In this document: positions 32,474 through 44,532 of the stretch, in pieces
How the letters are laid out: each line of letters begins with the position of its first letter
Numbering within the stretch: position 1 is the stretch's first letter
From: an uncultured Desulfobacterales bacterium
Lineage (GTDB): Bacteria > Desulfobacterota > Desulfobacteria > Desulfobacterales > B30-G6
Assembly (NCBI GenBank): GCA_964435695.1
Contig: CAYTAQ010000003.1
Location: forward strand, 1-62,178
Reading direction: 5' to 3'
DNA length: 62,178 bases
The notes under the pieces: generated by a model
Told to the model about the DNA's origin: nothing
What the model saw: only the letters and a program-made list of their open reading frames with translations
Databases searched by the model: none
Made by a program: the position numbers and the translations under genes

Positions 32474-33766
32474 TTACATCTCAAAACCTCTTTCTCCGTG
32501 AATGGCGTTGTCAAGTCCTTGAACCTCGCTGTCCGGATCCACCCGAAGACCGTTGGTGACAGCGCGTGTGATAAAAACAATGATGAGCGTTCCAACAGCC
32601 GAAAAAGCCGCCGTCCCCATGATCGAAACAATCTGTATCCAAAGCTGACCCGGATTTCCGTGAATGAGACCCTTTGCGCCTTCAGTGACGGCCGGATTTG
32701 CAAAGATACCGGTTGCAAGCGCACCCCAACAACCACAAACACCATGTACGCCAAAGGCATCCAGCGAATCATCATAGCCCATTTTTTGTTTTAGAACGGC
32801 AACACTGAAAAATCCAATGATCCCCGCCAGCAGACCGATGACCAATGACGCCGGCAGTGTTACAAAGCCGGCCGCCGGCGTAATGGCAACCAGTCCTGCG
32901 ACAGCACCCGACGCTATACCGAGAACCGTCGGCTTTTTATTTACTACCCAGTCTGTAAACATCCATGCCATGGCAGCCATGGCAGCCGATGTGTTCGTTA
33001 CAAGAAATGCGGACCCGGCAATACCGTCGGCAGCCAGCTCACTTCCTGCATTAAACCCGAACCAGCCGAACCATAACAAGGCCGCACCCAGACTTGTCAG
33101 CGCGATACTTGATGGAAACATGGCCTCTTTCCCATATCCTTTACGTTTACCCAAAACCAGCGCCAGCACAAGACCGGCAACACCTGCATTGATATGGACC
33201 ACGGTTCCACCTGCAAAGTCAAGCGCTCCCATGCCGCCCATCCAGCCGCCGCCCCACGCCCAATGAGCAACGGGTGAATAAATAAACGTCACCCACAATA
33301 TTGTAAAAACCACCCACGATGAAAATTTCATCCGGTCGACAATGGAACCGATCACCAGCGCAACGGTTATGCCGGCGAAAGTCATCTGAAACAATACAAA
33401 AACATAGGTGGGAATGGTTCCGGAAACACTGTTTACGCTGATGCCGGATAGAAAAAAGTGTTCCAACCCGCCGATAATGCCTGCATGGGATGAACCAAAG
33501 GCCAGTGAATAGCCCCACATCATCCATACAATGCTCGCGAGACAATATGACACAAATGTCATGGCGATGGTATTCAGCAGATTTTTTGAGCGGGACATCC
33601 CCCCGTAAAAAAGCGCAAGCCCCGCAGGCGTCATCATCATCACAAGCGCCGTAGCAACAATGATCCATGCTGTATCACCGGTATCGATGGCGCCCCCCCC
33701 TGCAACAGCAGACCCGACAGAAAGGAAAAATATGCCGACTGAAACCAAACTCGTTCGTAGCTTCAT
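32474..33766 (-). CDS. amtB: Ammonium transporter
   Basis: FQMTFA, DFAGGTVVHINAG, WFGWFGFNAGS, DDSLDAFGVHG. Confidence 0.97.
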   Translation of the reverse strand: MKLRTSLVSVGIFFLSVGSAVAGGGAIDTGDTAWIIVATALVMMMTPAGLALFYGGMSRSKNLLNTIAMTFVSYCLASIVWMMWGYSLAFGSSHAGIIGGLEHFFLSGISVNSVSGTIPTYVFVLFQMTFAGITVALVIGSIVDRMKFSSWVVFTILWVTFIYSPVAHWAWGGGWMGGMGALDFAGGTVVHINAGVAGLVLALVLGKRKGYGKEAMFPSSIALTSLGAALLWFGWFGFNAGSELAADGIAGSAFLVTNTSAAMAAMAWMFTDWVVNKKPTVLGIASGAVAGLVAITPAAGFVTLPASLVIGLLAGIIGFFSVAVLKQKMGYDDSLDAFGVHGVCGCWGALATGIFANPAVTEGAKGLIHGNPGQLWIQIVSIMGTAAFSAVGTLIIVFITRAVTNGLRVDPDSEVQGLDNAIHGERGFEM

Positions 33767-33825: not shown

Positions 33826-33840
33826 GCAAATGGTGTGCCA
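33826..33840 (-). promoter_or_regulatory. Sigma54 promoter of amtB
   Basis: TGGCAC-ACCAT-TTGC, consensus. Confidence 0.88.
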
Positions 33841-34877: not shown

Positions 34878-36242
34878 TCACGACGGGATGCCGTATCTTT
34901 TCAATTTACGCCAGAGTGAAACCCGGTCGATACCCATACCGGCAGCGGCCCTGGTCTTATTCCCGTCGTATTTTTCAAGCATCCACCGGATATAACGCAT
35001 TTCTTGCTGTTCGAGGGTCGGGACGTCCGATGAATTGAAGCGGTAGGTTTCGATGGACAAATTTCTCAGATAATCCGGCAGCGTTGCGCTGCTGATGGAA
35101 GGGCCGTTCTCCAGTGCAACGGACCGCTCCATGACATTTTCCAGCTCGCGCACATTTCCCGGCCAACTGTAGGCTCGCAGCAGGTCCATCGCATCCGGAT
35201 CGATTCCGCTGATCTCTTTGTGCATCGCCTTGCGTTTCAATGCCAAAAAGAAATTGGCCAACAGCGGGATATCGCCTTCACGCTCGATCAGCGGCGGCAA
35301 CCGCACGGTGATCACGTTGAGCCGGTAATACAGGTCTTGACGAAACTGCTTGCGTTCAACTTCTTCTTTCAAGTCGCGATGGGTCGCGGAGATAAAACGG
35401 ACGTCCGTCGGTCGCGGGGTTACGCCGCCGACCCGCAGTACTTCCCGGTCCTGTATGACCCGGAGCATTTTGAGCTGCATGGACCGGGGCATGTCGCCGA
35501 CTTCATCTAAAAACACCGTACCGCCTGCCGCCGTTTCCAGCAGCCCCGGTTTCTCCCTGCTGGCACCGGTAAAAGCCCCCTCCTCGTGACCGAAGAGTTC
35601 GTTGGCCATCAGCTCCTCGGTAAAGGAGCCGCAGTTGAAAGCTACAAAACGTTTGCCGGACCGGCTGCTCAACTGATGGATGGTCCGTGCCACAAGCTCC
35701 TTGCCGGTACCGCTCTCCCCCAGAATGAGCACGTTGCTGTCGGCTGGAGCAATTTGCCGTACGGTTTTCAGCACATTTTTGACGGCCTGGCTTTCCCCGA
35801 TGATAATCGGGGCGGTTCCGGCCTCTCTGAGCGTTTCCCTGAGTTGCATGTTTTCGAGTTGCAAGCGCCGTTTGAGAAGGGCCTCGGCCGCCACTCGGCG
35901 TACCATATCTATCTTGAACGGCTTTGCGATGTAATGATAGGCGCCGGCCTGCATGGCGTTGACCGCCGAATCGACGGTTGCGTATCCGGTGATCATGATG
36001 ACTTCGGTCAGCGGGAGGTGTTTGCGACTCTGAACCAGCAGGGTCATGCCGTCGACGCCTTTCATCCTCAAATCGGTAATCACCAGATCAAAGCTTTTGC
36101 TTTTGATCAGATCCAGTGCCTCCGCACCCCCGGAAGCCGCTGTGACGACGTACCCCTCTTTTTCCAGGATATGGACAAGATTTTTGCGGGCGATATCTTC
36201 ATCTTCAACAACGAGTATGCTTTCTTCAGACTGTTGCGGCAT
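34878..36242 (-). CDS. Sigma54-dependent response regulator
   Basis: REC, GESGTGKE, GAFTGA, WPGNVREL; start ATG 36242 overlapping the kinase end. Confidence 0.95.
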   Translation of the reverse strand: MPQQSEESILVVEDEDIARKNLVHILEKEGYVVTAASGGAEALDLIKSKSFDLVITDLRMKGVDGMTLLVQSRKHLPLTEVIMITGYATVDSAVNAMQAGAYHYIAKPFKIDMVRRVAAEALLKRRLQLENMQLRETLREAGTAPIIIGESQAVKNVLKTVRQIAPADSNVLILGESGTGKELVARTIHQLSSRSGKRFVAFNCGSFTEELMANELFGHEEGAFTGASREKPGLLETAAGGTVFLDEVGDMPRSMQLKMLRVIQDREVLRVGGVTPRPTDVRFISATHRDLKEEVERKQFRQDLYYRLNVITVRLPPLIEREGDIPLLANFFLALKRKAMHKEISGIDPDAMDLLRAYSWPGNVRELENVMERSVALENGPSISSATLPDYLRNLSIETYRFNSSDVPTLEQQEMRYIRWMLEKYDGNKTRAAAGMGIDRVSLWRKLKRYGIPS

Positions 36243-37722
36243 CACAGACTCCGACCGGTAGATAGACGGTAAAGGTTGTGCCTTCATTCAGCTTGCTTTC
36301 CGCTTCGATCCGTCCGTTATGTTTTTGCACAATCCCATGACAGATGGCCAGCCCCAGCCCTGTGCCCTCCTGATCGAGAATGCCTTCGTACGTTCGCATC
36401 TGGCCTTTGGTATCACTGGAAATTTCCTTGGTTGAAAAAAAAGGATCGAAAATTTTGGAGATATATGCTTCGGGGATACCCTTGCCCGTATCGCGAACCT
36501 GAAAACAAAACTCCCGCGGGTTGTGCGGGAAAGCCTTGATGGTAATCTTCCCGCCGTTTTCAATGGCATGCAGGGCGTTTAGAATCAGGTTCAGCAGCAC
36601 CTGCTGGATTCGGCGGGAATCAATTTCTCCGCAGATTTCGTCGGGGATGTCGGCAACCAGGGTAACGTTGGCGGGTATTTCGCCTTTAATGAGTTTGAGG
36701 GTGTCCTCTACCAGTTGTTTGAACAAAACCGGTTTGACGCTGAAATTGCGCTGGCGGGAAAATTCCAGCAGCGCCCGGACGATGTCGCGCGCACGTTCCA
36801 CCTGTTTTTCGGCGTCCGTCAGGAGTTCCCGCTTGTAAGTCAGATCGTCATCTTCCAGTTCTTCCAGTAGGATCTGTACGGAGGTGTAAATGTTGTTGAG
36901 TGGGTTGTTCAGCTCGTGGGCCACTCCGGAGGTCAGGGTCCCCAAAGCAGCCAGTTTTTTTGCCTGGATAAGCTGTTCGCTGCGCTGATTCAACATCTTG
37001 ATCATGTTGTTCAGACTGCCGACCAGAGATTCGAACTCGACACCTGCGGCAATGGCCGGGATATTATCATAATTGCCTGAAGCGATATCGCTGACGGCGT
37101 TTTCAAGCGTTTTCAACGGTCTGTTTACATTCAGCATAAAAAAAAGAATCGCAATCACAAACAGCAGAAAAATGCCGCCCAAAGCGGCAAATTGATAGAT
37201 TTTGGAATCGTAAATGAGCCGGTTGATGGTTAGGCGTTCATTTTTGACCATCTTTTCGGTTTCTTCGGTAATTTTGCGGCCCAGAACCGGAATCATCTGC
37301 TGGTCGCGGGCCACGGCTGCGGATTTCTCCGGCGCTTGCGGCAGCGGGTTGCTCTCTTGATAGACGCGCAAGAGATGCAAAAGCGAATGCTCGTAATTCC
37401 CCAGGTTTTTGAGCCTGTCATGGAGGTCGGTGGCCGCAGTGTACGCGGCGTCGTTGGCAATAACTTCCTCGAGCTTTTTTTGGGCCTGGTGGATAAAAGT
37501 AATGGCATTCTCAAGGTGCTCGCTGTTGAGGGTCAGAAAGTAGTTTTTTTCAAAGCGACGGGCTTCCAGAATAACGTTCAGCAGATCTTCCTTTTTTTCG
37601 ATGATGCGCAGCTTGTGATTGATGAGATTGCTGTTGTAGTAATTCAAAAGCCAGATAATGCCGCCGGCCAGCATATATGCCGTGAAAATGAGGATGATTT
37701 TTTTTCGAATGCTTATGCGCAT
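36226..37722 (-). CDS. Membrane sensor histidine kinase (2 TM, HAMP)
   Basis: AHELNNPL, NALHA, GTGLGLA. Confidence 0.92.
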   Translation of the reverse strand: MRISIRKKIILIFTAYMLAGGIIWLLNYYNSNLINHKLRIIEKKEDLLNVILEARRFEKNYFLTLNSEHLENAITFIHQAQKKLEEVIANDAAYTAATDLHDRLKNLGNYEHSLLHLLRVYQESNPLPQAPEKSAAVARDQQMIPVLGRKITEETEKMVKNERLTINRLIYDSKIYQFAALGGIFLLFVIAILFFMLNVNRPLKTLENAVSDIASGNYDNIPAIAAGVEFESLVGSLNNMIKMLNQRSEQLIQAKKLAALGTLTSGVAHELNNPLNNIYTSVQILLEELEDDDLTYKRELLTDAEKQVERARDIVRALLEFSRQRNFSVKPVLFKQLVEDTLKLIKGEIPANVTLVADIPDEICGEIDSRRIQQVLLNLILNALHAIENGGKITIKAFPHNPREFCFQVRDTGKGIPEAYISKIFDPFFSTKEISSDTKGQMRTYEGILDQEGTGLGLAICHGIVQKHNGRIEAESKLNEGTTFTVYLPVGVCDAATV

Positions 37723-37777: not shown

Positions 37778-38632
37778 TCAAACATAGTAAGGCACCTCGA
37801 TGTCACAGATGATCTCCTTTACATCGGGAATTTTCTTCACTGCAGACGTGATCTCCCGATATAAATCGTTCCGGATTTGCGTTTGAATCTGCTGCTGCAT
37901 CTCCGGGCTGGTAAAATCCGTGATCTTGATCTTCTGGCCCTTGACTTTGATATGAACGCTGCCGTCCCTGCAGGTGACTTCGTCGGCGCTGCAGATCCCG
38001 TTGATGACGGCACTGACATGGCTGCACAGGGCCAGGTCGTACAGCGCGGTCCTGGACACAGTCGTCGCTTTGAACGTGTCGCTCTTGGCCGCCGTGCAAA
38101 TAACGTCACAGGCGTCCTGAATCCTCAACCGGCCGATATGCAGTACCATATCATAAAACTGCGGATTGCTCATGTCTTTTTTGTAAATGTAGTGATACCA
38201 TTCAGCCCGTTCATTGTCCTCCTGTTCGATGAGGTGCAGCGCGACATCCCGGGAAACCTTTTTCTGGCGTTGAAGGAAGGTCACGCGATCTTCCATGTCG
38301 GCCATTACCCGGATCTTCAACACGTGCGAAATACCGGGCAGCAGAATGTGACCGGCATAACCGTGATAGACGATATTATCCTTTTTGGCATGTTCCATCA
38401 GGGCGGTACGGATGAAATCGAGAAAGTGTCGCCGGGCGTGGGTAATACGTTCGATCAGACCGGGGGCGCCGTGGAGAGTCTCCGCCAGCTTTTTCTCGGG
38501 GATGTTGAAGGATTCGGATGCCTCCAGGAGCACTTCCTGGCTGATGCATTCATAACCGAGTGCCGCCGCCACCCGCTCGGCAATTTCTCTGCCGTGGCTG
38601 AAGCACCCTCTTGAAATTGTAATAATTGCCAT
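37778..38632 (-). CDS. Cytidylate kinase-like family protein with C-terminal BON-like domain
   Basis: IITISRGCFSHG-EIAERVA, VYHGYAGH, LKIRVMAD; start ATG 38632. Confidence 0.8.
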   Translation of the reverse strand: MAIITISRGCFSHGREIAERVAAALGYECISQEVLLEASESFNIPEKKLAETLHGAPGLIERITHARRHFLDFIRTALMEHAKKDNIVYHGYAGHILLPGISHVLKIRVMADMEDRVTFLQRQKKVSRDVALHLIEQEDNERAEWYHYIYKKDMSNPQFYDMVLHIGRLRIQDACDVICTAAKSDTFKATTVSRTALYDLALCSHVSAVINGICSADEVTCRDGSVHIKVKGQKIKITDFTSPEMQQQIQTQIRNDLYREITSAVKKIPDVKEIICDIEVPYYV

Positions 38633-38655
38633 GTGAAAAAAACCTCTCTTTTCAT

Positions 38656-38710
38656 ACCACCGCAACCCCGCGCAGCCCTGGACGGCAAGGCTGCGCGGGG
38701 TTGCGGTGGT
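38656..38710. other. 22-bp perfect intergenic hairpin
   Basis: ACCACCGCAACCCCGCGCAGCC / GGCTGCGCGGGGTTGCGGTGGT, 11-nt loop, no U tract. Confidence 0.8.
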
Positions 38711-38717
38711 TGATCTA

Positions 38718-40529
38718 TTAAATTCCGTAAAAGAAGTAAAGGATTGACAGTTCGACGCTCAAAAAAATAACGGTCATGATCAGGCCGGCTTTGGCATAAT
38801 CCAGGGTTCGATAACCGCCGGGCCGCATGACCAGGGCGTTGACCTGATGCGTGGGCAGCACGAAGGTGTTGGACGCCGACAACCCGACCACCAGGGCCGC
38901 CATGCGCGGATCAGCTCCGGCAATGACCGCCATGTTCATGCACAGGGGCACCAGCAGCACGGTTGCGCCCACGTTTGAAATCACCAGGGTAAAAAAGGAG
39001 GTCATGATGCCTACAGCGGTCAACAGCAAGATGGGAGACGGCTGTCCCAGCAGCCCCAGTATCTGGTTGGCGATAAAGGCCGCGGTGCCGGTTTTTTCAA
39101 AGGCCATGCCAAGCGGAATGAGACCCGCCAGCAGAAATACGGTCATCCAGTCGACCGCCCGGTAGGCCTCGTCGATGTTGAGCACCCCACTGATGATCAT
39201 TCCCAGGGCGCCCGACATGAGGGCCACCGAAAGCTGAATCTTGAAAAAAATGATCTGGGCAAGTGAGACCGCCAGCCATAAAATGGCCAGTTTTGCTTTC
39301 TGGGGCCGCATGATTTCGCCTTCGAGCGGCGTCGCGAAGGTCAGCGCTCGTGGCTGCGGCCTGTTCTTGAGAATATGAAACCGCTCCCAGGGCCCCTGCA
39401 GAAGCAGGGTATCACCCATCTGGAGCTGAATGTGGGTCAGACCGCTGTAATAGATGCGTTTGCCTTTGAACAGGGCGACTGGATTGAGCTGGTAAAGATC
39501 CTTGAAGTTGACTTCGTTCATGGTTTTGCCGACCAGCTCCGACCGGGGTGAAACCACGGTTTCAGCCATGCCCGCATTGGTTCGGGAAAGGCTTTCGCCA
39601 AATGTATTCAGGCTTTCTTTGAGCGTCCAGCCATACTCCGATGCGAGCTGCCTTACATTTTTTTCCCTGCCCACCACGGCGATGTCGTCATTGGCGGCAA
39701 TGGGGCTGTAGCTTCTGGGAACGAAATTTTTTTCCTTTTTGTCCGCGTGGTAGACGGCTACGACGGTGACGAGAAATTTTGTCCTTATGTCAAGTTCGGA
39801 GAGTGTGCGCGGACCGTTGAAGTTTTCCGGCACCAGCAGTTCGAAGGTGCTGCCCAGCGCCTTATACTCTTCCATCAGCGAAGCCGTTACGCCCTTGTCA
39901 GCCTCCCCCTTGGCGGCCGGCAGGACAAAACGGCCGAACAAAACGAAATAGAGGATGGCGCTTCCCAGCAGACAGATTCCGATGGGCGTCTGGGTGAAGA
40001 GACCGAAGGGTTCCAGCTTTTCACCGCCGAGAACCATCAGGTCGTTCAGCAGAATCGTGGGGCTGGCGCCGACAAGCGTGATGGTCCCGCCGATAATTGC
40101 GCAAAATCCCATGGGCATGAGGATACGCGAAACCGGGACATTCATCCTTTTTGCGATCCGCTGTGCGGCCGGTAAAAAAAGCGCGGCCGCGCCGATATTC
40201 TGCATCATGCTCGAAATGATGCCCACAGCACCTGAAATCAGCGTAATGACGCGTTTTTCGCTTTTGCCGGCAAAGCGAATTATCGGGCCGGCAACTTGAT
40301 TCATCACGCCCGTTTTGTCCAGTCCGGCGCCGATGATGATCACGGCGATGATGGAGCAGACCGCATTGCTGCTAAGCCCCACAAAGGCGTCTTTAGGTGA
40401 AACGAGGCCGATTAGAGGAAGCAGCACCATCATGATAATGCCGACGACGTCAACCCTCACCCATTCAAAAACAAAGAGAACGATTACAAAAACAAGCACG
40501 ATCATAGTTAAAATCATGTCAGGTGCCAT
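38718..40529 (-). CDS. SLC13/DASS family permease with TrkA-C domains
   Basis: IIGAGLDKTG, MMQNIGAAA, GGTITLVGAS, SNVGATVLLVP, PTHQVNALV. Confidence 0.9.
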   Translation of the reverse strand: MAPDMILTMIVLVFVIVLFVFEWVRVDVVGIIMMVLLPLIGLVSPKDAFVGLSSNAVCSIIAVIIIGAGLDKTGVMNQVAGPIIRFAGKSEKRVITLISGAVGIISSMMQNIGAAALFLPAAQRIAKRMNVPVSRILMPMGFCAIIGGTITLVGASPTILLNDLMVLGGEKLEPFGLFTQTPIGICLLGSAILYFVLFGRFVLPAAKGEADKGVTASLMEEYKALGSTFELLVPENFNGPRTLSELDIRTKFLVTVVAVYHADKKEKNFVPRSYSPIAANDDIAVVGREKNVRQLASEYGWTLKESLNTFGESLSRTNAGMAETVVSPRSELVGKTMNEVNFKDLYQLNPVALFKGKRIYYSGLTHIQLQMGDTLLLQGPWERFHILKNRPQPRALTFATPLEGEIMRPQKAKLAILWLAVSLAQIIFFKIQLSVALMSGALGMIISGVLNIDEAYRAVDWMTVFLLAGLIPLGMAFEKTGTAAFIANQILGLLGQPSPILLLTAVGIMTSFFTLVISNVGATVLLVPLCMNMAVIAGADPRMAALVVGLSASNTFVLPTHQVNALVMRPGGYRTLDYAKAGLIMTVIFLSVELSILYFFYGI

Positions 40530-40748: not shown

Positions 40749-41309
40749 TCAGTGCATTGAATAGACAAAGACTTCTCTGCGCGGGCGATTGTCCTTGGCG
40801 ATACGATCGACCGCTTCCGCGGGCTGTACATCGGATATGACAAACTCGATATCCGCGTATTCCCGCTGTATTTCTTCCAGGGCCTGGTCCGGCTCGCTGA
40901 AACGGACCAAATGGGTAAAATGGATACCCGTTTTTTCCGCGGCCCGTTGAAATTCTGCAACATTTTCCCGGGCCAGGCTTTCGAATTGCTCACAGAGTTT
41001 ATTCTGGGAAGCGGAAAAAAGCCTAAACGTGTCGCAGGAGAGCGGCGCCGTGCTCAAAGCCAGGATCTCGTAAGACATCCGCTGGGCCATTTCGAGGGCA
41101 TAATCGACAATTTTGGGGGAAAAGGTGCTTTCCCTCCCCATGACCAAAAGCCTGGCGGAAGTTTCCGCAGCGCTTTCAGCAGGTGCAAACACCGCCTGAA
41201 GCGGAGCCGGCTGACCTGCCTGTGCATAGGTAATGGCCTCCTGATATTGGTCCATACGACCGGCAAAATGCCGTGCCCGGTCTTTGATCCTCCCGAAAAT
41301 GTTCGCCAT
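40749..41309 (-). CDS. Hypothetical protein, USP-like fold suspected
   Basis: LLVMGRESTFS-KIVDYALEMAQRM-YEILAL, IEFVISD. Confidence 0.7.
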   Translation of the reverse strand: MANIFGRIKDRARHFAGRMDQYQEAITYAQAGQPAPLQAVFAPAESAAETSARLLVMGRESTFSPKIVDYALEMAQRMSYEILALSTAPLSCDTFRLFSASQNKLCEQFESLARENVAEFQRAAEKTGIHFTHLVRFSEPDQALEEIQREYADIEFVISDVQPAEAVDRIAKDNRPRREVFVYSMH

Positions 41310-41346
41310 TTCAAACCTCCTTCTCGCCTAAATGTATTTTGAGCAT

Positions 41347-41856
41347 TCAGCCCCTCACGAATACGAGGGGTGTTGCCAGCTTGCTCCCGATACGGCGGGC
41401 CAATGCCCGCTGCTGGTTATCGGCTGACCACCGCAACCCGCCGGATGCAGGCGGCGTGTCGTAGATGGTTAAAACCACGTCAGGATGCTTCTCCACGTAT
41501 CGAATGATTTCTTCTTCCGGATCGCCCGGCGTGACCACAAAATGATAGTCGATAGGCGTGCGCGCCAGGTTCGGACCGGGGTCCTTGAAATTGTTTCCTG
41601 CAAAATCTCTCAACGCTTCGGCCATATCGTGCTCCCCGGCCTCGGAAAACGTCACCGAGACCATGGCGTCTTCGAATAAGCTATTCATCTGCCGCAGGCC
41701 TGTTTTGATTTTTTTAAGATATCTTCGATAGCCTCGCTGCCGGATAATATGGACAACATCCAGCCCGGCACGAATAGGTCTGCAAAACTTGAGCGCAAAT
41801 TGGAGCGCCTTTTGGTCCGGTGGCATGCTGCCAATGGCCAGTAGTATCTTTTTCAT
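41347..41856 (-). CDS. Universal stress protein-like protein
   Basis: KKILLAI...KALQFAL, GDPEEEIIRYV, KLATPLVFV. Confidence 0.75.
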   Translation of the reverse strand: MKKILLAIGSMPPDQKALQFALKFCRPIRAGLDVVHIIRQRGYRRYLKKIKTGLRQMNSLFEDAMVSVTFSEAGEHDMAEALRDFAGNNFKDPGPNLARTPIDYHFVVTPGDPEEEIIRYVEKHPDVVLTIYDTPPASGGLRWSADNQQRALARRIGSKLATPLVFVRG

Positions 41857-41890
41857 GATTTTGGCTCGGCAATTTCTGTTTGAATTTGGA

Positions 41891-42073
41891 TCAAATCCTC
41901 ATCACGGGCCGCGAAGCGACCTGCTGCCGGATCTTCTCTGCCGTAATCCGGGATCGTCGCAAAGGTGTTTCACTCATGATGGTGCGGGCCGTTTTCCAGT
42001 CGTTCGCTTCGGCGAAGGCCACCGCCACCATCAACCGCTCAAAGGCATCCATCATTTTTTTTATCGCAAACAT
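41891..42073 (-). CDS. Small hypothetical protein (60 aa)
   Basis: SD GAGGAGGAG; FERLMVAVAFAEANDWKTARTIM. Confidence 0.7.
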   Translation of the reverse strand: MFAIKKMMDAFERLMVAVAFAEANDWKTARTIMSETPLRRSRITAEKIRQQVASRPVMRI

Positions 42074-42129: not shown

Positions 42130-42144
42130 TCAAAGTTCGTGCCA
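42130..42144 (-). promoter_or_regulatory. Sigma54 promoter of the SLC13 operon
   Basis: TGGCAC-GAACT-TTGA. Confidence 0.7.
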
Positions 42145-42223: not shown

Positions 42224-42327
42224 CGTTACAATTTGCAATGGTATTATCCGCCATGTCAAATAAGCATTGATTAACAGGTAGTTATGTACTGTTGCCGGAG
42301 AAGCGAACAGCGTTGCAGATCGCAACG
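42224..42327. promoter_or_regulatory. Candidate enhancer sites
   Basis: CGTTAC-N5-GCAATG (42224-42240) and perfect CGTTGC-N5-GCAACG (42311-42327). Confidence 0.5.
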
Positions 42328-42460: not shown

Positions 42461-44461
42461 ATGCGAATTTTCAAAAAAGAAGACGTGCAGGGGGCAGGAA
42501 GCAGCGAACTCGATGAGCTGCGCAGGACGGTTGGCGATGCCGGTCTGCCCGGGGATGTTGAAAAGGCTGCCCAAAAGGAACTCGACCGGATCGAGAAAAT
42601 GGGGCCGGCCAGCGCCGAATACACGATAGGTATCAACTATATTGATTTTGTGGCCAGTCTGCCCTGGCTCAAATCCACCGAGGACCGGCTGGACCTCAAA
42701 TCGGCGGAAGCGATTCTGGATGCCGAGCACTTCGGCCTTACGGAAATAAAAAACCGCATTCTGGAACACCTGGCCGTCAGGATACTGCAAACGTCACACC
42801 GCGAAAAGATGCTGGTGGTGGACGACGAAAAAATCACGCGTATGAATCTTGAGCATGTCCTTTCAAAGGAGGGCTACGATGTCGTGGTTGCCGCCGATGG
42901 ATCCGATGCGCTGGCGCTTTTGGAAAAAAACAGATTCGACGTTATCCTCACCGATTTAAAAATGGAAAAAGTCGACGGTATGGAGGTGCTCGGGAAGGCC
43001 AAGGAGAAAGATCCGTCCACGGAGGTCATCATTATCACCGGATATGCCACGGTGCCTACGGCGGTCGAGGCCATGCAGAAGGGATCGTATCACTTTCTGG
43101 CCAAGCCGTTGAAACTGAATGAAATCAGGTCCACCGTCCAGCAGGCATTATCCCGCAAACACGGCCGGTTCGAATCCCGCGGTTCGGTGCTTTGTTTTGC
43201 CGGGCCGCCCGGAACGGGAAAAACCTCGCTGGGGATGTCCATCGCCAGGAGCATGCACCGCAAATTTACGCGAATCTCTTTGGCGGGCATGAAGGATGAA
43301 GCCCAGCTCAGAGGGCATCGGCGAAGCTATGTAGGCGCTCTGCCCGGAAGAATCATTCAGGAAATCAGGCGCTGTGATACCCGCAACCCGGTCTTCATGC
43401 TGGACGAGTTGGACAAGATCGGCCAGGATTTCAAGGGCGATTCGGCTGCCGCCCTTCTGGAAATCCTGGACCCGGAACAGAACACCCATTTCATGGACCA
43501 CTATCTGGACATTCCTTTTGATCTGTCAAAAGTCATGTTTATCGCCACCGCCAATGCAGTGGACACAATTCCCGGCCCCCTGCTGGACCGTCTGGAGGTT
43601 TTGTGGCTTTCAGGGTATACGGACGTGGAAAAAACGCAAATCGCCTTCAATTATCTGATACCCAGAGAAAACCGCGCCGCAGGGCTTACCGATCCACCGG
43701 TCCGGTTTACCCCGGAAGCGGTGCGCAAGATAATTCGCGAATACACCCGGGAGGCCGGTCTGCGCGATCTGCAGCGACAGATTGCTTCGCTGTGCAGAAA
43801 AATAGCCCGCAACAAGCTGGATCCAAAAATAGGAATTGAGGATCTCCTGATTACCGAACAGCATGTTGAGACCCTTCTGGGACCCTGCCGGTTTTTCGTT
43901 GAGGTCGCGCATGCCAAAGACCGCATCGGCGTAGCGACCGCCCTTGCATGGACGGATGCCGGCGGAGAAATCGTTTTTATCGAAGCAACCAAAATGAAGG
44001 GTCGCAATCACCTTATCCTGACCGGATCGCTGGGCACGGTAATGAAGGAATCCGCCCAGGCGGCGTTGAGCTATATCCGCAGTCATGTCGAAGATTATGG
44101 AATAGCGGAGGACTTTTTCGAACAGCACGACATCCACATCCATATCCCGGCCGGTGCGATTCCTAAAGACGGCCCGTCGGCAGGTCTGCCGATCGCCATG
44201 GCGCTGTTGTCCCTGATTACCGGGCGGCCCTGCCGCCGCGATGTGGCCCTTAGCGGTGAGCTGACCTTGACCGGGCGCATACTGCCGGTGGGCGGTGTAA
44301 AGGAAAAGGTGCTGGCCGCCCATCGGGCCGGTGTAAAAACGGTTATATTTCCAGCCAAAAACAGTGCCAATCTGCAGGATATCCCCATCGAGATCGAAAA
44401 TGAACTCACCATCTCTTCGGTCGAAGAATTGTACCAGGCAGTCGATCTGGTCTTAAAATAG
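42461..44461 (+). CDS. lon: Lon protease lacking the N domain, with a receiver domain inserted before Walker A
   Basis: GPPGTGKTS, LDELDK, REAGLRDL, PKDGPSAG (catalytic Ser), GGVKEK (catalytic Lys); REC MLVVDD...TDLKM...AKP; start ATG 42461. Confidence 0.9.
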   Translation: MRIFKKEDVQGAGSSELDELRRTVGDAGLPGDVEKAAQKELDRIEKMGPASAEYTIGINYIDFVASLPWLKSTEDRLDLKSAEAILDAEHFGLTEIKNRILEHLAVRILQTSHREKMLVVDDEKITRMNLEHVLSKEGYDVVVAADGSDALALLEKNRFDVILTDLKMEKVDGMEVLGKAKEKDPSTEVIIITGYATVPTAVEAMQKGSYHFLAKPLKLNEIRSTVQQALSRKHGRFESRGSVLCFAGPPGTGKTSLGMSIARSMHRKFTRISLAGMKDEAQLRGHRRSYVGALPGRIIQEIRRCDTRNPVFMLDELDKIGQDFKGDSAAALLEILDPEQNTHFMDHYLDIPFDLSKVMFIATANAVDTIPGPLLDRLEVLWLSGYTDVEKTQIAFNYLIPRENRAAGLTDPPVRFTPEAVRKIIREYTREAGLRDLQRQIASLCRKIARNKLDPKIGIEDLLITEQHVETLLGPCRFFVEVAHAKDRIGVATALAWTDAGGEIVFIEATKMKGRNHLILTGSLGTVMKESAQAALSYIRSHVEDYGIAEDFFEQHDIHIHIPAGAIPKDGPSAGLPIAMALLSLITGRPCRRDVALSGELTLTGRILPVGGVKEKVLAAHRAGVKTVIFPAKNSANLQDIPIEIENELTISSVEELYQAVDLVLK

Positions 44462-44532
44462 CATTCCGCGTGCCCAGCGAAGCATGAAACTGTTTTTTTC
44501 TTTGGAACATGCTTTTGTTATGAAGAAATCCT

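Follow-up and report, generated by a model that had tools for sequence, protein, structure and literature searches.

The locus poses the question of what a Lon protease does with a two-component receiver domain built into its ATPase module, and from which kinase that receiver might take its phosphate. The protein, here termed REC-Lon, is encoded in a 62,178-nucleotide stretch of contig CAYTAQ010000003.1 from an uncultured Desulfobacterales bacterium (the window), beside genes for a sensor kinase, a sigma-54 regulator and a putative anion transporter.

A LonA core with a receiver inserted in the nucleotide-binding domain

The gene and its parts are laid out as follows:

42461..44461, plus strand: REC-Lon gene, 666 aa, apparently monocistronic; the gene downstream is convergent
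42500..42727, plus strand: retained LonA three-helix bundle (helices 16-26, 31-45, 52-65) and linker helix 79-89 (PDB alignment, AF2 secondary structure; helix names from PMC6722904)
42740..42796, plus strand: first helix of the nucleotide-binding domain (residues 94-112, ...ILEHLAVRILQ), with 3 residues to receiver beta1 (PDB alignment, AF2)
42800..43177, plus strand: inserted receiver (residues 114-239) with D121/D122, phospho-acceptor D165, T193, aromatic switch F212 and K215 (Pfam, family alignment, AF2)
43178..43846, plus strand: AAA+ module with beta1 243-247, Walker A 248-255, pore-loop Y290, Walker B D315/E316, sensor-1 N365, Arg finger R377 and lid (Pfam, family alignment)
43850..44455, plus strand: Lon_C protease domain with the S573-K616 dyad (Pfam, family alignment)

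The start at 42461 is conserved (M1 in at least 90% of the rows of the family alignment, F4 invariant), whereas the alternative start at 42284 adds 59 non-conserved residues. The Pfam search of the 666-aa protein recovered Response_reg (118-226; 6e-29), AAA (244-380), Lon_lid (406-453) and Lon_C (PF05362; 464-665; 1e-81) and returned no match to the N-terminal LON_substr_bdg domain (PF02190), whose loss the original prediction had noted; the NCBIfam model TIGR00763 ('endopeptidase La') matches in two stretches and, at 698 bits, exceeds its cut-off of 608. In phmmer alignments to PDB sequences, residues 14-111 correspond to 7-104 of Bacillus subtilis Lon (3m6a) and 248-344 of T. thermophilus Lon, with the N-terminus at the equivalent of residue 248 of the latter, and residues 240-657 correspond to the AAA+ and protease parts of Lon structures. 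As the segments on both flanks align with Lon structures, the receiver is a clean insert, and the insertion point holds 125-127 residues in REC-Lon versus 2 in canonical Lons. By the boundaries of E. coli Lon (PMC6722904), it lies inside the nucleotide-binding domain, after the first helix and before strand beta1.

The motifs are all in place: D165 in TDLKM, T193 in ITGY and K215 in AKP, which bears out the claim of a full receiver between LEHLAVR and the Walker A motif, together with Walker A GPPGTGKT at 248, Walker B at 311-316, S573 in PKDGPSAG and K616 in GGVKEK. Across 58 family members, these residues are invariant or nearly so: D122, D165 and K215 do not vary, T193 is Thr or Ser and position 212 is F/Y, which completes the CheY-like set of acidic pair, Asp, Thr/Ser, aromatic switch and Lys. 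S573 and K616, the Ser-Lys dyad predicted to be intact, are likewise invariant, and the ATPase and protease residues are all invariant across two phyla. Judged by these motifs, REC-Lon is a core derived from LonA (endopeptidase La, MEROPS S16) without the N domain, with intact ATPase and protease sites and a catalytically complete receiver.

Over the AAA+ and protease parts it shares about 57-59% identity and all motifs with canonical LonA (E. coli, B. subtilis 3m6a, M. taiwanensis 4ypl/7yuh), from which it differs in lacking the PUA-like N domain and the long coiled-coil helix and in carrying the insert. The losses are limited to the globular N domain and the long coiled coil, the three-helix bundle being retained, and REC-Lon begins where crystallised truncations such as the 'AAAP' construct (residues 242-793) begin. 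The genome has three ordinary full-length LonA genes elsewhere, and a genome-wide profile search for PF02190 gave three matches, all in these other Lons; the substrate-recognising N domain was thus found neither in cis in REC-Lon nor as a free gene. N-truncated MtaLon retains ATPase activity and casein degradation and loses the degradation of damaged proteins. Without an N domain, REC-Lon should have no role in general quality control.

An AF2 monomer model of REC-Lon superposes on 7yuh_A with a TM-score of up to 0.92 (Foldseek). In it, the long receiver helix alpha5 (219-239) runs straight into AAA+ beta1 with almost no linker. The modelled receiver is joined rigidly at either end: before it lies the first helix of the nucleotide-binding domain, and after it alpha5 connects to the Walker A strand. 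At the alpha5/beta1 junction the pLDDT drops to 59 in this model, which is of the monomer and not the hexamer.

One family in two phyla and its Desulfovibrio precedent

REC-Lon is present in 44 of 340 high-quality genomes of the phylum (about 13%), spread over 35 of 255 genera, at one copy per genome save for a single genome with two, and it likewise occurs in Nitrospirota; the original prediction had expected it in other deltaproteobacteria. The architecture is common to more than 120 protein clusters, each about 665 aa long, and open frames with a contiguously matched junction were found in 45 genomes; at the level of sequence, the gene is real and conserved. A tree built on the columns outside the receiver unites the family in a single clade (SH-aLRT 100), which points to a single origin of the architecture.

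Neither the architecture nor the idea of a combined system is new, both having been published in 2011, when DVU3303-DVU3304-DVU3305 of Desulfovibrio vulgaris Hildenborough was proposed as a 'three-component system' and DAP-chip placed a binding site in the region between DVU3301/2 and DVU3303 (Rajeev et al. 2011, PMC3333781). By homology, the window gene is a further member of this DVU3303-type family, with probable orthology drawn from the single REC-Lon clade, which includes Desulfomicrobium, and from the shared binding motif. Thus, the genomic observation stands in the literature and the window instance contributes detail on a kind already known; what is new here is the exact insertion site, the single origin, the sister receivers and the FAEAGE motif in three neighbouring genes (see below). 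Our literature searches found no biochemical study of a receiver-fused Lon, in keeping with the original remark that none was known.

The two loci (for D. vulgaris, PMC3333781; Kazakov 2015, PMC4641369; PMC10102598) have in common a receiver-bearing Lon without the N domain, a linked sensor kinase and sigma-54 regulator, GTTGCR-N3-YGCAAC palindromes in the divergent region and a regulon of USP-type proteins, hypothetical proteins and an anion transporter. They differ in that the window REC-Lon stands alone on its strand while the kinase and regulator end the divergent transporter gene string, in that the window transporter is a CitMHS/SLC13-like permease with TrkA_C as against the anion transporter DVU3299, and in an extra cytidylate-kinase-like gene in the window. 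A DASS sulfate-transporter cluster of Desulfosarcina variabilis (PMC11887813), which features Cache-domain kinases and WalR-type regulators, was considered and is not the same module; a survey of sulfate transporters (PMC5840216) says nothing of Lon, USP or two-component genes.

A divergent sigma-54 locus and a probable shared kinase

The genes and sites upstream of REC-Lon are, in order of coordinates:

34878..36287, minus strand: sigma-54-dependent response regulator of the DVU3305 type, with REC, Sigma54_activat with GAFTGA, and Fis-type HTH (HTH_8)
36226..37722, minus strand: sensor histidine kinase with TM 7-28, periplasmic segment of about 145 aa, TM 173-204, HAMP, HisKA and HATPase_c
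37778..38665, minus strand: cytidylate-kinase-like protein
38718..40529, minus strand: CitMHS/SLC13-like permease with two TrkA_C domains, putative anion transporter
40749..41309, minus strand: 186-aa protein of no known family, with an N-terminal FAEAGE-type motif (ITYAQAGQ)
41347..41856, minus strand: USP-family protein with an internal FAEAGE-type motif (TFSEAGEHDMAEAL)
41891..42073, minus strand: short ORF of 60 aa, under the listing threshold, with a FAEAGE-type motif (AFAEANDWKTAR) and preceded by a strong ribosome-binding site; first gene after the sigma-54 promoter-like site
42130..42144, minus strand: sigma-54 promoter-like site TGGCACGAACTTTGA, pointing away from REC-Lon, at distances of 81 and 168 bp to the palindromes
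42225..42239, strand-neutral: second predicted DVU3305-type palindrome GTTACAATTTGCAAT, 2 mismatches, 87 bp from the first
42312..42326, strand-neutral: predicted DVU3305-type regulator palindrome GTTGCAGATCGCAAC, 1 mismatch, 149 bp upstream of REC-Lon

The palindromes were compared with the published DVU3305 motif, a set of 15-mers with a 3-bp spacer (GTTGCR-N3-YGCAAC; Table S9, PMC3333781). GTTGCA-N3-TGCAAC has four matches in the whole window, two of them within 316 bp upstream of REC-Lon. Across the family, such palindromes reach 3.3 per kb upstream of the gene versus 0.09 per kb elsewhere, are mostly paired about 87 bp apart and number at least one in 46 of 56 loci; the one at -57 in a Desulfomicrobium locus (L060) coincides with the position given for Dbac_2668 in Table S9 of PMC3333781. 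A comparable minus-strand sigma-54 site is present in 36 of 56 sources (55 loci and the window). No sigma-54 promoter was found directly before REC-Lon in the window, and sites on the REC-Lon strand are confined to some Desulfobacter, Desulfobacula and Nitrospirota loci.

Among the conserved neighbours, the cytidylate-kinase-like gene belongs mainly to Desulfobacterales loci, and TauE/SafE replaces the permease in Nitrospirota and Desulfomonilales. The FAEAGE-type motif, 30 aa long, recurs in the 60-aa ORF, the USP and the 186-aa protein; as a label peculiar to REC-Lon systems it was rejected, since it also occurs in 34 of 356 genomes without REC-Lon.

Orthologues of the kinase and regulator lie within 10 kb of REC-Lon in most loci with enough flank, in two phyla. 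In the window, REC-Lon is on the opposite strand from the kinase and transcribed separately; in Desulfomicrobium (L059 and L060) and a further locus (L058), the order on one strand is REC-Lon, kinase, regulator, with overlapping frames in L060. In a few fully flanked loci (L009, L045), neither kinase nor regulator was found near REC-Lon. The two receivers are 49% identical over 123 residues (E 3e-40), close to the half estimated by eye in the original prediction, and no other of the genome's 72 receivers is as close a paralogue of the Lon receiver as the regulator's (122 bits versus 95 for the next). The Lon and regulator receiver families group together to the exclusion of 28 other NtrC-like receivers of the genome (SH-aLRT 94). 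At eight kinase-contact positions the pair scores 28 versus at most 11 for other receivers, and the signature x-[AT]-N-H-[VI]-[FYL]-K-[LI] is common to both in nearly all of 36 pairs; within-genome covariation at these residues gave no signal (28.2 vs. 27.5), as they scarcely vary. Also common to both families are surface residues on beta5/alpha5 that are rare otherwise (H211, K218, R223).

The prediction that one kinase serves both REC-Lon and the sigma-54 regulator is therefore supported by synteny in two phyla, sister receivers, common kinase-contact residues and candidate regulator-binding sites beside the gene. The published cofitness of DVU3303-3305 in D. vulgaris, above 0.9 (Trotter 2023, PMC10102598), points the same way; it could partly reflect polar insertions, as DVU3303 heads its operon.

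A proposed phospho-switched protease and its alternatives

Taken as a whole, the locus is probably best explained by a shared kinase, a divergent sigma-54 regulon and a phospho-switched REC-Lon with dedicated clients; REC-Lon would then be a DVU3303-type Lon paralogue with a dedicated regulatory role. The kinase (36226-37722) would pass phosphate to D165 of REC-Lon as well as to the sigma-54 regulator, which would bind the two palindromes at 42225-42326 and fire the divergent sigma-54 promoter. This promoter would drive the genes for the small FAEAGE protein, the USP, the 186-aa protein and the anion permease, and possibly also those for the kinase and regulator. Six phosphorylated receivers on the Lon ring may alter assembly or ATPase activity and so switch proteolysis, by analogy with NtrC1/DctD-type activators. 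The clients would be few and dedicated, most plausibly products of the co-regulated operon.

The NtrC1/DctD/AtoC-type sigma-54 activators have the same receiver sequence type (best PDB receiver matches 4l4u, 1zy2 and 1ny5) and likewise have it immediately N-terminal to the Walker A strand of their AAA+ ring, which makes receiver control of ring assembly a natural analogy. Unlike them, REC-Lon has a Lon-clade unfoldase fused to a protease rather than a sigma-54 remodeller, a helical bundle before the receiver, and an alpha5 that enters beta1 almost without a linker. RssB and CpdR, which act with ClpXP, are separate response-regulator proteins that deliver or prime substrates in trans. They too place proteolysis under a two-component receiver and are among the weaker NCBIfam receiver matches of REC-Lon, whose receiver, in contrast, is within every protease subunit.

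More tentatively, and at a clearly lower probability, the circuit may be an incoherent feed-forward loop: the kinase would induce the FAEAGE proteins and the anion permease via the regulator and, via D165, switch a dedicated Lon ring whose clients or adaptors are these very proteins with their FAEAGE hairpin, the motif serving as address label and six receivers replacing the N-domain crown and gating assembly. In the D. vulgaris chlorate data, mutants in the signalling genes gain fitness and the transporter mutant loses it, a pattern that fits a negative, protease-type output and that a pure activator cannot explain.

A somewhat less probable reading takes the receiver as a recognition module in place of the N domain, which pairs with the regulator's receiver and delivers the regulator for feedback degradation, phosphorylation setting the form taken. 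NtrC1/DctD-type receivers dimerise through alpha4-beta5-alpha5, and the sister receiver families with their rare beta5/alpha5 residues in common, the N domain missing in cis and as a free gene, and the tight co-inheritance of REC-Lon and regulator genes would all suit such a hypothetical heterodimer. Yet a shared kinase explains the common residues equally well, and in D. vulgaris the fitness pattern of the Lon mutants matches that of the regulator mutants instead of opposing it, a comparison clouded by polarity.

We regard it as improbable that the main role of REC-Lon is that of a phosphate sink or competitor, dampening the signal to the sigma-54 regulator, with a constitutive protease independent of phosphorylation. 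Branched pathways with a second receiver as sink are well known (e.g., CheY paralogues), and the common kinase-contact signature agrees with one, but a sink needs no AAA+ protease, whereas the ATPase and protease residues are invariant across two phyla; the rigid two-sided coupling in the model argues for allostery, and a sink mutant should oppose the kinase and regulator mutants instead of showing cofitness above 0.9. Equally improbable is phosphorylation by another kinase or acetyl phosphate, with the linkage reflecting co-regulation only: the separate transcription in the window and the loci without a nearby pair (L009, L045) speak for it, and against it stand the two-phylum synteny, one-operon arrangements included, and the neighbouring regulator's place as closest of 72 receivers with the specificity signature in common. 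A decaying remnant or assembly chimera without function, recalling the first annotation of DVU3303 as 'ATP-dependent protease La, truncation', is refuted by family-wide conservation (more than 120 clusters, open frames in 45 genomes, a single clade, invariant active sites).

We know of no AAA+ protease for which biochemistry has shown direct switching through two-component phosphorylation of the protease subunits themselves. If the feed-forward reading is true, REC-Lon would be the first AAA+ protease with response regulators as its own subunits. The window layout, with REC-Lon as a single divergent gene, means that a knock-out would escape the polarity problem of the D. vulgaris cofitness. 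The family is widespread among sulfate reducers and related anaerobes, where stress proteins and anion transporters are its neighbours, and it provides a compact model for receiver control of an unfoldase ring.

Domain architecture of the receiver-bearing Lon

Translation of the open reading frame at 42461-44461 (+) yields a 666-residue Lon protease with an inserted receiver (REC-Lon); an alternative start at 42284, which would add 59 residues, was rejected, as the extra residues look like noise and the relatives begin at the MxIFKK start, of which M1 is present in at least 90% of the family alignment rows and F4 is invariant. A Pfam search of the 666-aa protein recovered no LON N-terminal domain and placed the following domains:

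Domains of REC-Lon (Pfam, residue numbers)
118-226, receiver
244-380, AAA domain
406-453, Lon lid
464-665, Lon_C

The NCBIfam endopeptidase La model scores above its cut-off on REC-Lon, with the match split in two pieces because a 127-residue receiver-like stretch separates the Lon-aligning parts. Sequence searches against the PDB align residues 14-111 with the B. subtilis Lon construct 7-104 and T. thermophilus Lon 248-344, and residues 240-657 with the AAA+ and protease parts of Lon; the 127 intervening residues match NtrC1-type receivers, not Lon. Among 22 canonical Lons aligned with REC-Lon, the receiver columns hold 2 residues in 19 and 16-20 residues in three Chloroflexi proteins (loci L082, L084 and L087; Ardenticatenaceae and Caldilineae). 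These 16-20 extra residues lie at the exact receiver site, and the loop therefore tolerates insertions. In the helix naming of Rotanova and colleagues for LonA (PMC6722904), REC-Lon retains helices α8-α10 and the α11 linker, together with the helix that opens the nucleotide-binding domain and that the receiver directly follows, in agreement with the original prediction of an insertion into the AAA+ module. The accompanying claim of a lost N domain applies to the globular domain and the long coiled coil and not to the three-helix bundle α8-α10, which is kept; the underlying sequence observation (a full receiver ahead of the Walker A motif, an intact Ser-Lys dyad) is correct in every detail.

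An AlphaFold2 model built from the 58-sequence family alignment (mean pLDDT 83.9, pTM 0.76) has three short helices (16-65) and the linker helix (79-89), followed by a further helix (94-112) that passes via three residues into receiver strand β1. The receiver adopts the standard fold of five strands and five helices, and three residues lead from its 21-residue α5 (219-239) to the AAA+ strand β1 and the Walker A loop. In the model, the receiver is complete and no flexible linker separates it from the preceding helix or from the following Walker A strand; the Lon parts match solved LonA chains with TM-scores of up to 0.92. When residue conservation is scored across 58 family members, the key positions of the receiver (D121/D122, D165, K215-P216 and the aromatic switch at 212), the ATPase (Walker A G248-T255, pore-loop Y290, Walker B D315/E316, N365 and R377) and the protease (S573 and K616) are invariant or nearly so, and position 193 is Thr in about four-fifths of the members and otherwise Ser. 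Judged from its sequence, REC-Lon is a working design rather than a remnant.

Distribution of the family and its linked kinase and regulator

The same length and domain set recur in more than 120 protein clusters of ≥69% identity, and those that are named are all 'endopeptidase La' or 'ATP-dependent Lon protease'. The architecture had been predicted to be present in other deltaproteobacteria, which is borne out by 57 loci with a receiver-bearing Lon in a scan of species-representative genomes, spanning Desulfobacterales (including Desulfosarcina variabilis, Desulfobacter and Desulfobacula), Desulfomonilales, Syntrophobacterales, Desulfarculales, Desulfobulbia, Desulfomicrobium and also Nitrospirota/Thermodesulfovibrionia. 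An even sample of the window's phylum has REC-Lon in 44 of 340 high-quality genomes (35 of 255 genera), as one copy per genome and two in one genome; all matches are unbroken over the junction, in open frames of ~670-860 aa (mostly 670-730). In a tree computed from the non-receiver columns only, a branch with SH-aLRT 100 separates all receiver-bearing Lons from the other Lons, which is consistent with a single origin. The window's own genome has an unusually large Lon set, with REC-Lon and three full-length LonA proteins of 819, 807 and 794 aa (contigs C9, C39 and C31), and its LON N domains are found only in these three ordinary LonA proteins.

Most loci with enough flank, Nitrospirota included, have orthologs of the window's sensor histidine kinase (36226-37722, minus strand) and sigma-54 response regulator (34878-36287, minus strand) at most 10 kb from REC-Lon. 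The order REC-Lon, kinase, regulator on one strand is seen in Desulfomicrobium (L059 and L060, with overlapping frames in the latter) and in an unclassified bacterium (L058). The window's genome has 72 receiver matches, of which that of the neighboring regulator is the nearest to the Lon receiver (122 bits, 50% identity); the next scores 95 bits. A tree of receivers unites those of the Lons with 34 of 37 partner-regulator receivers at SH-aLRT 94, and all 28 other NtrC-like receivers of the window's genome fall outside this group. At eight positions that we take to be kinase contacts from the Spo0F and RR468 interfaces (five in α1 and three in the β5-α5 loop), the window's pair reads ITNHVLKL and IANHIFKI, with a BLOSUM62 sum of 28 versus at most 11 for any other receiver, and, of the 36 pairs compared, nearly all have the signature in both receivers. 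It would fit either one kinase for both receivers or a duplication with specificity retained.

The published system, its promoter signature and the divergent genes

In D. vulgaris, DAP-chip located binding of the regulator DVU3305 between DVU3301/2 and DVU3303, the REC-Lon gene, with a motif of 15-mers of the form GTTGCR-N3-YGCAAC (Table S9) and a regulon, DVU3298-3302, of membrane, hypothetical and UspA-type proteins (Rajeev et al., PMC3333781); the same regulon is listed by Kazakov 2015 (PMC4641369). Each pair among DVU3303-3305 has a cofitness above 0.9; the three genes are detrimental in chlorate, in which the target anion transporter DVU3299 is needed (Trotter 2023, PMC10102598). The original prediction of one kinase acting on both receivers re-derived the three-component hypothesis for DVU3303-3305, published in 2011 and genetically supported in 2023. 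A literature search found no biochemical study of a receiver-fused Lon, as that prediction also stated, and no structural one. The window has the following features:

Features of the window near REC-Lon
37778-38665, minus strand, cytidylate-kinase-like (PF13189) gene between permease and kinase
41891-42073, minus strand, 60-aa ORF with a strong ribosome-binding site (GAGGAGG), directly downstream of the sigma-54 promoter-like site
42130-42144, minus strand, sigma-54 promoter-like site TGGCACGAACTTTGA, facing seven minus-strand genes
42225-42239, predicted DVU3305-type palindrome (motif search)
42312-42326, second such palindrome, 87 bp from the first

Matches to GTTGCA-N3-TGCAAC with at most two mismatches number four in the 62-kb window, as chance predicts; the two palindromes both fall inside the 316 bp between the sigma-54 promoter-like site and the REC-Lon start codon, for which our own arithmetic gives an expectation of ~0.016. 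Across 56 loci, palindromes are present at most 450 bp upstream of REC-Lon in 46, at 3.3 per kb versus 0.09 per kb elsewhere in the loci, and are mostly paired 86-88 bp apart; one of the L060 sites is at -57, the position given for Dbac_2668 in Table S9 (PMC3333781). A scan of 55 loci and the window found sigma-54 promoter-like sites on the divergent strand in 36 of these 56 sources and on the REC-Lon strand in 9, with none on the latter strand in the window. From the predicted palindromes and the divergent sigma-54 promoter-like site, we therefore take the window to hold the published circuit with REC-Lon rearranged to stand alone; compared to D. vulgaris, the operon is rearranged and the transporter is different. 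Further GTTGCA-N3-TGCAAC pairs ~87 bp apart lie several kb from REC-Lon in L011, L013, L024, L040, L041, L046 and L066; other promoters of this regulon probably lie at these pairs. Elsewhere in the window, a perfect sigma-54 consensus, TGGCACACCATTTGC (33826-33840, minus strand), is found 60 bp upstream of an ammonium transporter gene (32474-33766, minus strand), the usual NtrC-type arrangement, and weak terminator-like hairpins occur on both strands at 44465-44490, right after the REC-Lon stop codon.

The seven minus-strand genes code for the 60-aa ORF, a USP, a 186-aa protein, a CitMHS/SLC13-like permease with TrkA_C domains, the cytidylate-kinase-like protein, the kinase and the regulator; two transcription units are possible because a 219-bp gap precedes the permease. 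Conserved neighbors of REC-Lon are the kinase (38 loci), the regulator (31 loci), USP-type proteins, small proteins without a known family, the cytidylate-kinase-like gene (7 loci, mainly Desulfobacterales and one Syntrophobacterales) and an anion-type membrane transporter, which is of the TauE/SafE family in 24 loci (Nitrospirota, Desulfomonilales and relatives) and CitMHS/SLC13-like in 17 (Desulfobacterales). Gene neighborhoods thus indicate that the transporter family is swapped and the circuit kept.

Several otherwise unlike proteins of REC-Lon loci share a ~30-residue segment, the FAEAGE motif (consensus xxxxExxMxAxTFAEAGExxTAxEI), whose profile has only three matches among ~44,000 six-frame ORFs of the window's genome: the 60-aa ORF (E 2e-10), the USP (1e-6) and the 186-aa protein (1e-3), encoded consecutively at 40749-42073 (-) after the sigma-54 promoter-like site. 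From its ATG, the 60-aa ORF is below the 80-aa minimum of the ORF listing, where the frame appears as an 84-aa ORF with a GTG start; related loci have small motif-bearing ORFs (~54-63 aa) at the equivalent position. The motif occurs in 64 of 401 phylum-sample genomes, 30 of 45 with REC-Lon versus 34 of 356 without (odds ratio ~19, uncorrected for relatedness), and is thus associated with REC-Lon and not exclusive to it. Where both are present, coordinates often place a motif ORF within 1-2 kb of REC-Lon, and several Thermodesulfovibrionia loci have motif ORFs on both sides of it, on the same strand.

Proposed action of REC-Lon

The interpretation of the original prediction, namely a kinase that would couple transcription of the transporter operon to switchable proteolysis, is the best supported one, and the family-wide evidence strengthens it. 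In NtrC1/DctD-type activators, the receiver state decides AAA+ ring assembly. By analogy, we posit that the linked kinase would phosphorylate D165 and that the resulting change at α4-β5-α5 would reach the nucleotide-binding domain or the contacts between subunits via α5. Alignments show REC-Lon as a LonA core starting where experimental N-truncations start; one of these, M. taiwanensis 'AAAP' (242-793), has wild-type ATPase and peptidase activity and degrades casein but has lost the ability to degrade thermally damaged or scrambled proteins (PMC8087443). REC-Lon would then act on a few dedicated clients, and, purely as a hypothesis, the FAEAGE motif could be a docking or degradation label for it. 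In D. vulgaris on chlorate, mutants of the signaling genes gain fitness and the transporter mutant loses it (PMC10102598), with the caveat that insertions in DVU3303 may be polar because it is the first gene of its operon. A negative, protease-type output on the products of the divergent operon would fit the sign of these phenotypes.
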